64,000 nucleotides of DNA from a virus (Duplodnaviria; Caudoviricetes). The translations under genes and the position numbers were made by a program. The notes beneath the pieces were generated by a model. The model saw nothing but the letters and a program-made list of their open reading frames with translations. It did no database searches and was not told the DNA's origin. Positions within the stretch are counted from its first letter, which is position 1, and every line of letters starts with the position of its first letter. Shown piece after piece: positions 59,719 to 59,755 of this stretch. The DNA is taken from IMG/VR virus record IMGVR_UViG_3300042257_000126, positions 9,570 to 73,569 of that record, one strand, 5' to 3'.

Positions 59719-59755
59719 GTTTCAATCCTTGTTTTGCTGGAATCAGGTCTGGGAG
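59719..59755 (-). CRISPR. solitary CRISPR-repeat-like unit (no array)
   Basis: 37 nt GTTTCAATCCTTGTTTTGCTGGAATCAGGTCTGGGAG; the reverse complement ends in ATTGAAAC. Confidence 0.5.

Follow-up and report, generated by a model that had tools for sequence, protein, structure and literature searches.

A phage that carries one copy of a CRISPR repeat, and in which neither Cas1 nor Cas6 was found, raises a twofold question: is the copy a real repeat and, if so, what does it do for the phage? We address it here for a 37-nt element at positions 59719–59755 of a 64,000-nt stretch of viral DNA (hereafter the window, to which all coordinates refer). The window covers bases 9570–73569 of the 73,569-nt IMG/VR record IMGVR_UViG_3300042257_000126, which is classed as linear and estimated to be 92% complete, and the end of the window is the end of the contig. 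The 37-mer is very probably a real solitary repeat unit (SRU) of a widespread family of 37-nt repeats that end in ATTGAAAC and accompany type I-B/I-D cas operons, and it appears to have been taken from a host-type array into a strain-variable region of early-gene cassettes. As to its role, we rank first, tentatively, an action at the RNA level against the CRISPR system of the host, as a repeat mimic of the RNA anti-CRISPR (Racr) kind; a recombination footprint comes second and an antisense RNA third. Both the function and the strand that would be active are deduced from sequence.

A solitary repeat of a widespread 37-nt family

On the + strand the unit reads GTTTCAATCCTTGTTTTGCTGGAATCAGGTCTGGGAG, opening with GTTTCAATCC and closing with TCTGGGAG, and its reverse complement, CTCCCAG...AAGGATTGAAAC, has ATTGAAAC as its 3′ terminus. 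This confirms, at 59719–59755, the single 37-mer described in the initial annotation of this DNA. When up to three mismatches are allowed, there is one copy in the window (0 of 100 shuffles gave a match) and one in the whole record, in agreement with the statement made there that no second full copy is present. No nearby tile scores 13 or more as a second repeat, the nearest weak partial copy being inverted and 580 nt away, and no full or partial repeat lies within 100 bp, as SRUFinder asks of an SRU (PMC10651486). Searches of the record for Cas1 and Cas6 were likewise negative, in line with the initial remark that no cas genes are seen. We call the unit solitary because the record holds one copy of it and neither of these two proteins was found. 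SRUFinder further asks for an intergenic unit. Here no ATG-started open reading frame (ORF) of at least 45 aa covers the unit, whereas a 29-codon frame from ATG 59703 and longer TTG/GTG frames run across it. Finally, a marginal and degenerate partial copy at 59112–59139 (inverted, + strand; 11 nt exact, CCTGATTCCAG, and 79% over 28 nt) has a local score of 16, which is the best of the window; 15 is reached elsewhere, and one of 500 shuffles of the 2.4-kb flanks equals 16. It was set aside as a second repeat copy, not being clearly over the window background.

The Rfam model CRISPR-DR7 (RF01320), run in E-value mode, aligns from end to end (model positions 1–37) with the minus strand at the exact coordinates of the unit. 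Its score of 27.9 bits, under the gathering score of 37, counts against the identification (E = 0.02 when 5 kb are searched, 0.26 for the entire window), as does the finding that the exact 37-mer has 0 matches in viral_contigs, genome_contigs and metagenome_contigs. With such a score and such an E-value at window scale, Rfam alone is insufficient to establish repeat identity. A relaxed pattern of the unit also gave 0 matches in metagenome_contigs, and the INPHARED phages hold no match to the unit and none to 58500–62500.

The identification is carried by comparison with the repeat family itself. A core with 22 fixed bases, GTTTCAATCCTTGTTTTNNTGGAA, is identical in the repeats of at least 120 loci of species-representative genomes and, among the matches listed, most of the core-bearing genome stretches form regular arrays in which the repeat recurs about every 73 nt. 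We compared the unit with 181 distinct repeats recovered from core-bearing genome stretches and from viral loci. The best array repeat among them, from the seven-copy array of locus L129 (a contig of 534 nt), is identical to the unit at 33 of 37 positions and agrees with it at 12 of the 16 positions that the search pattern does not fix, the remaining repeats of the 181 agreeing at nine or fewer. The initial annotation had made its case depend on a CRISPR repeat matching most of the 37 nt, and this one does. In Cas6-processed arrays the cut falls 8 nt from the repeat end and gives the CRISPR RNA (crRNA) its 8-nt handle. The 3′ 26 nt of the sense strand of the unit, comprising stem–loop and handle, show a single difference from L129, in the loop; four of the five stem pairs form, and the U–U mismatch is also present in the real repeat of L129. 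The two sequences align over 36 nt with three mismatches (blastn, 52.7 bits; blastn-short, 48.1 bits). With 36 of its 37 nt aligned, the unit thus passes the SRUFinder match cut-offs of at least 90% coverage and at least 41.1 bits to a known repeat (PMC10651486), here against the family repeats that we collected, the database and settings of that paper being different.

Type I-B cas genes (Cas7/Csh2, Cas5b, Cas3, Cas4 and Cas1) flank family arrays at three loci (L050, L072 and L121), type I-D genes (Csc2 and Csc1) flank the family array at L069, and an adaptation module with Cas6 adjoins a family array on a Runella plasmid. The proposed derivation of the unit from a repeat type with a ATTGAAAC handle is therefore borne out, the family adjoining both type I-B and type I-D cas genes. 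All nine arrays with adjacent cas genes follow these genes in the orientation that reads ...ATTGAAAC, which, in agreement with the Rfam model, places the crRNA sense of the phage unit on the minus strand.

Could the resemblance be fortuitous, the unit being a diverged copy of the intergenic motif of the phage (described below) or a piece of a small coding gene? This alternative might draw on the sub-threshold Rfam score with its window-scale E-value of 0.26, on the right part of the unit (GCTGGAATC), which resembles GGCTGAATCC of the motif, and on the 29-codon frame (59703 to 59792), which has a good start context and spans the unit. Yet the 22-base core is identical to that of at least 120 array loci, one repeat agrees with the unit at 33 of 37 positions, 17 nt of the unit (GTTTCAATCCTTGTTTT) are in no copy of the motif, the whole unit aligns as an array repeat in metagenome contigs, and the 29-codon frame, whose product has no Pfam match, crosses sequence that does not code for protein where the motif occurs elsewhere. 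Chance resemblance is thus nearly excluded, and we consider it close to refuted.

The repeat core is also present in 48 IMG/VR loci, of which 34 are single copies away from contig ends. A diverged neighbour repeat is lacking at 29 of these 34, and crude ORF calls place 27 of those 29 between genes. At the 16 viral loci with co-directional flanking ORFs, the unit is antisense in nine and sense in seven, so that an orientation opposite to that of the neighbouring genes is common in the family. At several viral loci (L009/L037, L028 and L045 among them) a promoter of the σ70 type (TTGACA...TATAAT) closely precedes the sense repeat. L009 and L037 are textbook-looking Racr candidates: read in the sense orientation, TTGACA-N17-TATGAT precedes the unit by about 10 nt, and a hairpin with a T-run follows downstream.

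The suggestion that the unit may identify the host did not hold. Among the matches listed, which include both metagenome-assembled genomes (MAGs) and isolates, core-bearing family repeats occur in genomes labelled Desulfobacterota, Nitrospirota, Aminicenantes, Brocadia, Bacillota, Bacteroidota and several methanogens; spread over many bacterial and archaeal phyla, the family makes a poor host marker. Nor did the Bacteroidota supply the near-full-length match that had been hoped for, their best repeat, on two Runella plasmids, reaching 31/37. The L129 contig is binned in a MAG labelled Desulfomonilaceae (G002). The repeat was found in one of the 70 genomes of its order, namely G002 itself, on the 534-nt contig, and the binning is doubtful because the remaining arrays of that MAG use a different repeat and the other 69 genomes lack this one. 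Three sampled Bacteroidota orders gave nothing closer than 30/37, and none beats L129: 0 of 401 sampled genomes for the order of the Bacteroidales MAG G001 (plain 37-mer, up to three mismatches), 0 of 301 for that of G003 (36-base form with three N, up to three mismatches) and 2 of 251 for that of G004, at 30/37 each.

Promoters and a possible repeat mimic

From which strand might the unit be transcribed? An early promoter-like element on the + strand, TGCATG-N-CAATCTTTGT (59636–59666), contains a −7-type box, AATCTTTG (59658–59665), and is predicted from its pattern to act as a promoter. The box ends 54 nt before the unit, close to the distance of about 55 nt given initially. The pattern TGCAYR-N18-22-CTTTGT has four matches in the record (52748, 56497, 59636 and 61377), where about 0.2 would be expected by chance (our own estimate); all four are on the + strand and each heads a + strand gene block. 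As the promoter at 59636–59666 reads through the unit, the predicted early transcript carries the antisense of the repeat. The initial annotation had said as much of the + strand transcript, and this fits the predicted promoters (four of four boxes on the + strand) as well as the orientation of the nine arrays.

The reading that we favour, with somewhat less than even confidence, relies on the other strand. A short minus-strand RNA would start at a weak box at 59770–59777, 14 nt upstream of the sense repeat, and would carry the sense repeat with its Cas6 stem–loop and 8-nt handle. Cas6 and Cascade subunits could bind this RNA and be drawn into useless complexes, and fewer phage-targeting crRNA ribonucleoproteins (crRNPs) would then be formed; the presumed steps are sense-strand transcription, Cas binding and inhibition. 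According to PMC10651486, viral SRUs are often located just downstream of a promoter and many of them are Racrs that bind Cas6 and Cas7, and a phage repeat copy acting as a mimic that binds Cas6/Cas7 is also described in PMC11656645. The reading is further supported by the location of the unit in a strain-variable cassette region, the usual home of counter-defence genes. The first of these studies reports 2,103 SRUs on viral sequences, including IMG/VR3, and the present unit may already stand in its list.

Several observations weigh against such a mimic. The well-supported promoter (59636–59666) is on the opposite strand, so that the abundant early RNA would be the antisense of the repeat. Racr use, like use as a Cracr (a viral crRNA-like regulatory RNA), needs the sense strand and therefore depends on the box at 59770–59777, AAAATTTG, a weak and imperfect −7-type match to TAnnTTTG on the minus strand, obtained in a relaxed scan. 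This box is the only candidate promoter for a sense RNA, no −33 element is seen with it, and it is made of the ACAAAT tail that is present in every copy of the motif. Folding gave −2.3 kcal/mol for the sense unit and a z-score of +1.68 for the 74-nt sense candidate, that is, no notable fold. Moreover, Racrs often adjoin acr genes, and the neighbours in 56034–63843 include no anti-CRISPR (Acr) or anti-CRISPR-associated (Aca) family, although small proteins without a family could still be Acrs. The sole Pfam matches in this interval are a DnaA-type helix–turn–helix at 56543–56923 and a weak DUF7533, and PHROGs, Pfam and the ESM Atlas gave no family or usable match for the neighbour proteins of the unit. 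Finally, in the single RNA run available (X15; contigs, strandless) the depth is 1.43 in the bin that holds the unit (59574–59807) and 0 in the next two bins, which favours neither side.

The cassette junction and competing explanations

Small + strand genes follow one another over 52,800–64,000, the region that holds the unit, and between them stand copies of an approximately 44-nt motif, GGCTGAATCCGTAACCCTGTGACCGGAGCAGGGCAGCCACAAAT, with an A/T-rich leader and an ATG after each copy. The order at the unit is promoter, ACAAAT and leader, ATG and five codons, unit, 3′ half of the motif, leader and 53-aa gene. The leader and gene start upstream (59676–59718, + strand; ATG 59703 and five codons, MKKVT) resemble those of neighbouring cassette genes and stop at the unit; the same leader-plus-ATG pattern is seen at 61171, 61445, 62623 and 63509 (families D8 and D11). 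Downstream, 59755–59774 corresponds to the 3′ half of the full motif at 63842–63886, the stretch 59756–59774 (+ strand, GAGCAGGGCAGCCACAAAT) being identical to 63868–63886, and the 5′ half (GGCTGAATCCGTAACCCTGTGACC) is absent. It had been proposed that the unit replaces the 5′ half of this ‘pseudoknot’ motif, and that is what we see: where a cassette gene would have its body and the next motif its 5′ half, the locus has the repeat unit instead. Full copies are found at 60757–60801 and 63842–63886 (D15) and in three related IMG/VR contigs (L171, L173 and L175), which have no repeat unit. Pairing between the unit and what remains of the motif is predicted for the + strand (CCUUGUUUU with GGAGCAGGG). 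The first gene downstream in the ORF list (59804–59965, + strand; 53 aa, no known family) and a 178-aa gene (60034–60570) together form a cassette that is absent from some strains. A search for relatives sharing the neighbourhood gave one distant relative for the 178-aa protein, but none for the 87-aa protein and none in which the gene start is broken in this way.

The 9-kb end of the window was found in 23 public runs from 19 studies, mostly of wastewater, with some crude-oil, oil-facility and aquatic metagenomes. Contigs of four public runs were compared with 57000–64000 at 85% likeness, a threshold that allows up to five differences per unit. A contig of an independent wastewater run (X2) spans 58216–60082 with 0 differences; the locus is therefore real and recurrent. 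The cassette region varies in other samples, with joints 59624→60812 and 59631→61444. In two of the four runs, arrays whose repeat is at least 85% like the unit are found together with the phage: four contigs of X6 and one of X14 contain the unit twice with 34–36 nt of other sequence between, that is, repeat–spacer–repeat, in which the repeat may differ from the unit within the threshold used. X14 has a depth of 0 over 59808–60509, the joint 59624→60812, a depth of 240 in the unit bin compared with about 40 for the phage, and one contig in which 255 nt or more of sequence unlike that of the phage adjoin the repeat. The arrays of X14 are thus not the phage locus, given the zero depth of the cassette beside the high unit bin and the contig that leads into non-phage sequence. 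More widely, the early region 59600–63900 is mosaic, with joints 62648→62963, 63192→63530 and others, mostly at conserved motif or leader sequences.

This setting bears directly on the best placed of the rival explanations, which we nonetheless hold to be unlikely: the unit would be a recombination footprint, a possibility already raised in the initial annotation, left by a double crossover in two neighbouring host spacers that matched the phage, in which the repeat replaced the cassette gene and the 5′ half of the motif. The outcome may be neutral, or it may be an escape, since the left protospacer is now flanked by the repeat (no protospacer-adjacent motif for type I, handle-complementary flank for type III). 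The unit stands exactly between a gene start broken after five codons (59703–59718) and a motif without its 5′ half (59756–59774), and both of its ends coincide with real repeat ends. Read on the minus strand, the repeat has spacer-like sequence on either side, and each of these flanks is antisense to the early mRNA, as it would be in an array that targets the phage; moreover, the region recombines often, as seen from the cassette joints, and arrays with a like repeat occur in the same communities. However, the search turned up no array whose spacers match the flanks. When 1392 spacers of family arrays were compared with the whole record, none matched over more than 23 nt (best 21/23), and three between-repeat strings from the metagenome contigs had 0 matches in the window. 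The scheme also requires two phage-matching spacers to be adjacent, and the ancestral gene was not found intact in any relative.

Less probable again, in our view, is a use of the antisense strand, in which the leader of the early operon would serve as an anti-repeat RNA and shut down crRNA maturation of Cas6-processed arrays. The early + strand transcript, from about 59670, would carry the full complement of the repeat about 50 nt from its 5′ end; it would pair with every repeat of the pre-crRNA and hide the Cas6 site or invite a double-strand RNase, lowering the crRNA supply. This reading, put forward in the initial annotation, is the one that promoter prediction favours, with a promoter family whose four members all lie on the + strand, a distance of 54 nt from the box to the unit, which itself precedes the first intact gene, and the sense ...ATTGAAAC in nine of nine arrays with adjacent cas genes. 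Such an RNA would resemble the anti-repeat of the trans-activating crRNA (tracrRNA) of type II systems, a host component that pairs with pre-crRNA and is needed for its processing. On the other hand, no class 1 precedent was found in those parts of the literature on phage repeat RNAs that the search covered, the + strand pairing of the unit with the motif remnant would compete with pairing in trans, and mature crRNPs would be left untouched. The near-random orientation of viral family units relative to their neighbours (9 versus 7) argues against selection for antisense.

We may also wonder whether the unit is a remnant or variant of a phage mini-array, other strains carrying repeat–spacer–repeat at this place and using the Cas proteins of the host against competitors, with one repeat kept here. 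Virus-borne mini-CRISPR arrays are reportedly known, repeat–spacer–repeat contigs occur in the same samples, and 6 of the 48 viral core loci hold multi-copy repeats, with a diverged neighbour repeat in five more. The unit itself is a single copy, where a mini-array is defined by at least two repeats and a spacer. The array signal of X14 persists despite zero cassette depth and its contig runs from the repeat into sequence unlike the phage, while three array contigs of X6 have depths of 67.5, 17.7 and 16.6, compared with about 30 for the cassette. This origin seems quite improbable to us.

The carrier is a 73.6-kb tailed phage in which PHROGs recognizes portal, large terminase, virion proteins, endolysin, exonuclease, methyltransferase and a primase-like protein. 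The tyrosine and serine recombinase families PF00589 and PF00239 gave 0 matches in the 92% complete record, controls responding in 14 and 12 of 14 genomes, and no integrase is present among the 46 ORFs scanned with PHROGs; the phage is presumably virulent. A Bacteroidota host is suggested by its frequent TAnnTTTG promoter boxes, which are of the Bacteroidota kind, by a Shine–Dalgarno-like core in only 6 of 78 ORFs and by A-rich leaders (44% A). The least probable explanation of all, an attachment site for integration into host array repeats, can point to the temperate phage PhiAP1.1 of Streptococcus pyogenes, which integrates into a CRISPR array via a repeat copy, so that such a copy in a phage genome can serve as an attachment site (attP; bioRxiv 10.1101/2020.10.09.333658), and is made unlikely here by the lack of any recombinase found and by the absence of a sign of lysogeny in the record.

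The copies of the intergenic RNA motif at 60757–60801 and 63842–63886 (+ strand), together with a variant at 59985–60035, have an outer stem GGCUG/CAGCC and an inner hairpin CCCUG/CAGGG, with a possible loop-to-upstream pairing UCCG/CGGA; ACAAAU and then the leader follow on the 3′ side of the motif. Two compensatory changes in the inner stem distinguish copies (CCCTG/CAGGG and CCGGG/CCCGG). The motif has no Rfam match and was found in this phage group alone: a scan with GGCTGAATCCGNAACC gave 71 loci, of which three (L171, L173 and L175) carry the whole motif, so that a covariation test is infeasible. A type-P3 twister ribozyme at 62551–62622 (+ strand; full length, 74.2 bits for a gathering score of 39.9) is intergenic and stands directly before the leader of gene 62644. 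Since the motif is placed in the same way, it may also act in RNA processing. An exact 127-nt repeat (60023–60149 and 63874–64000) comprises the motif end and the start of the 178-aa gene, and its second copy ends the contig; the assembly looks to have stopped on re-entering a repeated cassette start, and the missing 8% of the genome probably begins at 63874–64000.

Other features of the phage should be mentioned. A conserved box with a terminator (family D1, four copies), distinct from the TGCAYR pattern, precedes minus-strand late genes. The non-coding stretch 59106–59339 carries a TATATTTG box on the minus strand (59211). Its depth exceeds that of the adjoining sequence about tenfold in a crude-oil DNA run (1179 versus 113) and in the RNA run (75 versus 8); it has many variant positions and seems to be shared with other, more abundant relatives. 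Two tRNA genes lie on the + strand, tRNA-Met (CAT) at 3335–3406 and tRNA-Thr (TGT) at 3412–3485. A 287-aa protein (933–1796, + strand) fuses a phosphoheptose-isomerase-like half to a nucleotide-kinase-like half, and a 2882-aa ORF (18172–26820, minus strand) has weak PHROG matches.

Relation to known systems

Viral SRUs are a recently recognized route of CRISPR evasion, with few tested cases, which come from Proteobacteria-type systems. Such units are already known, and the present one adds a further Racr candidate, a clear SRU case for the large 37-nt type I-B/I-D-associated family in a Bacteroidota-like phage. Its placement antisense to a well-predicted early transcript makes it a discriminating object between mimicry and antisense action; were the latter true, it would be a class 1 RNA anti-CRISPR that works by base pairing, not by mimicry. 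Located exactly at a deletion junction between gene cassettes, the unit could also show how phages acquire repeats and, if it is a footprint, the targeted protospacer would have been left repeat-flanked and hence be treated as ‘self’.

How does the unit compare with the systems that it recalls? With tracrRNA it would have in common, solely under the + strand reading, an RNA that is complementary to the repeat and pairs with pre-crRNA; unlike tracrRNA, this RNA would be a phage product blocking a Cas6-processed class 1 array. With the CRISPR-DR7 model of Rfam the unit shares the full-length alignment, the length, the 3′ end AAGGAUUGAAAC and the place of the stem, and it differs from it by a score below gathering, by one U–U among the five stem pairs and by being a single copy instead of an array. 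PhiAP1.1 likewise has a copy of a host repeat in its genome, but is temperate, carries an integrase and targets a type II-A array (bioRxiv 10.1101/2020.10.09.333658), whereas no recombinase was found in the carrier phage.

The closest parallels are viral RNAs made from repeats. A Cracr, which loads host Cas proteins, is a viral RNA derived from a repeat, as an RNA of the unit would be; as described in the preprint that reports it, it needs a spacer-like part matching the host cas or creT promoter (bioRxiv 10.1101/2024.10.29.618823), whereas the sense repeat of the unit runs into the own leader of the phage. Compared with the Racrs RacrIF1 and RacrIC1 (PMC10651486), the unit has its sense strand opposite to a well-predicted early promoter, belongs to a type I-B/I-D-associated family, resides in a Bacteroidota-type phage and adjoins no recognized acr-like gene. 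Yet it is like these Racrs in being a single phage copy of a repeat, with no cas genes and no neighbouring repeat, located outside the larger genes and near a promoter.

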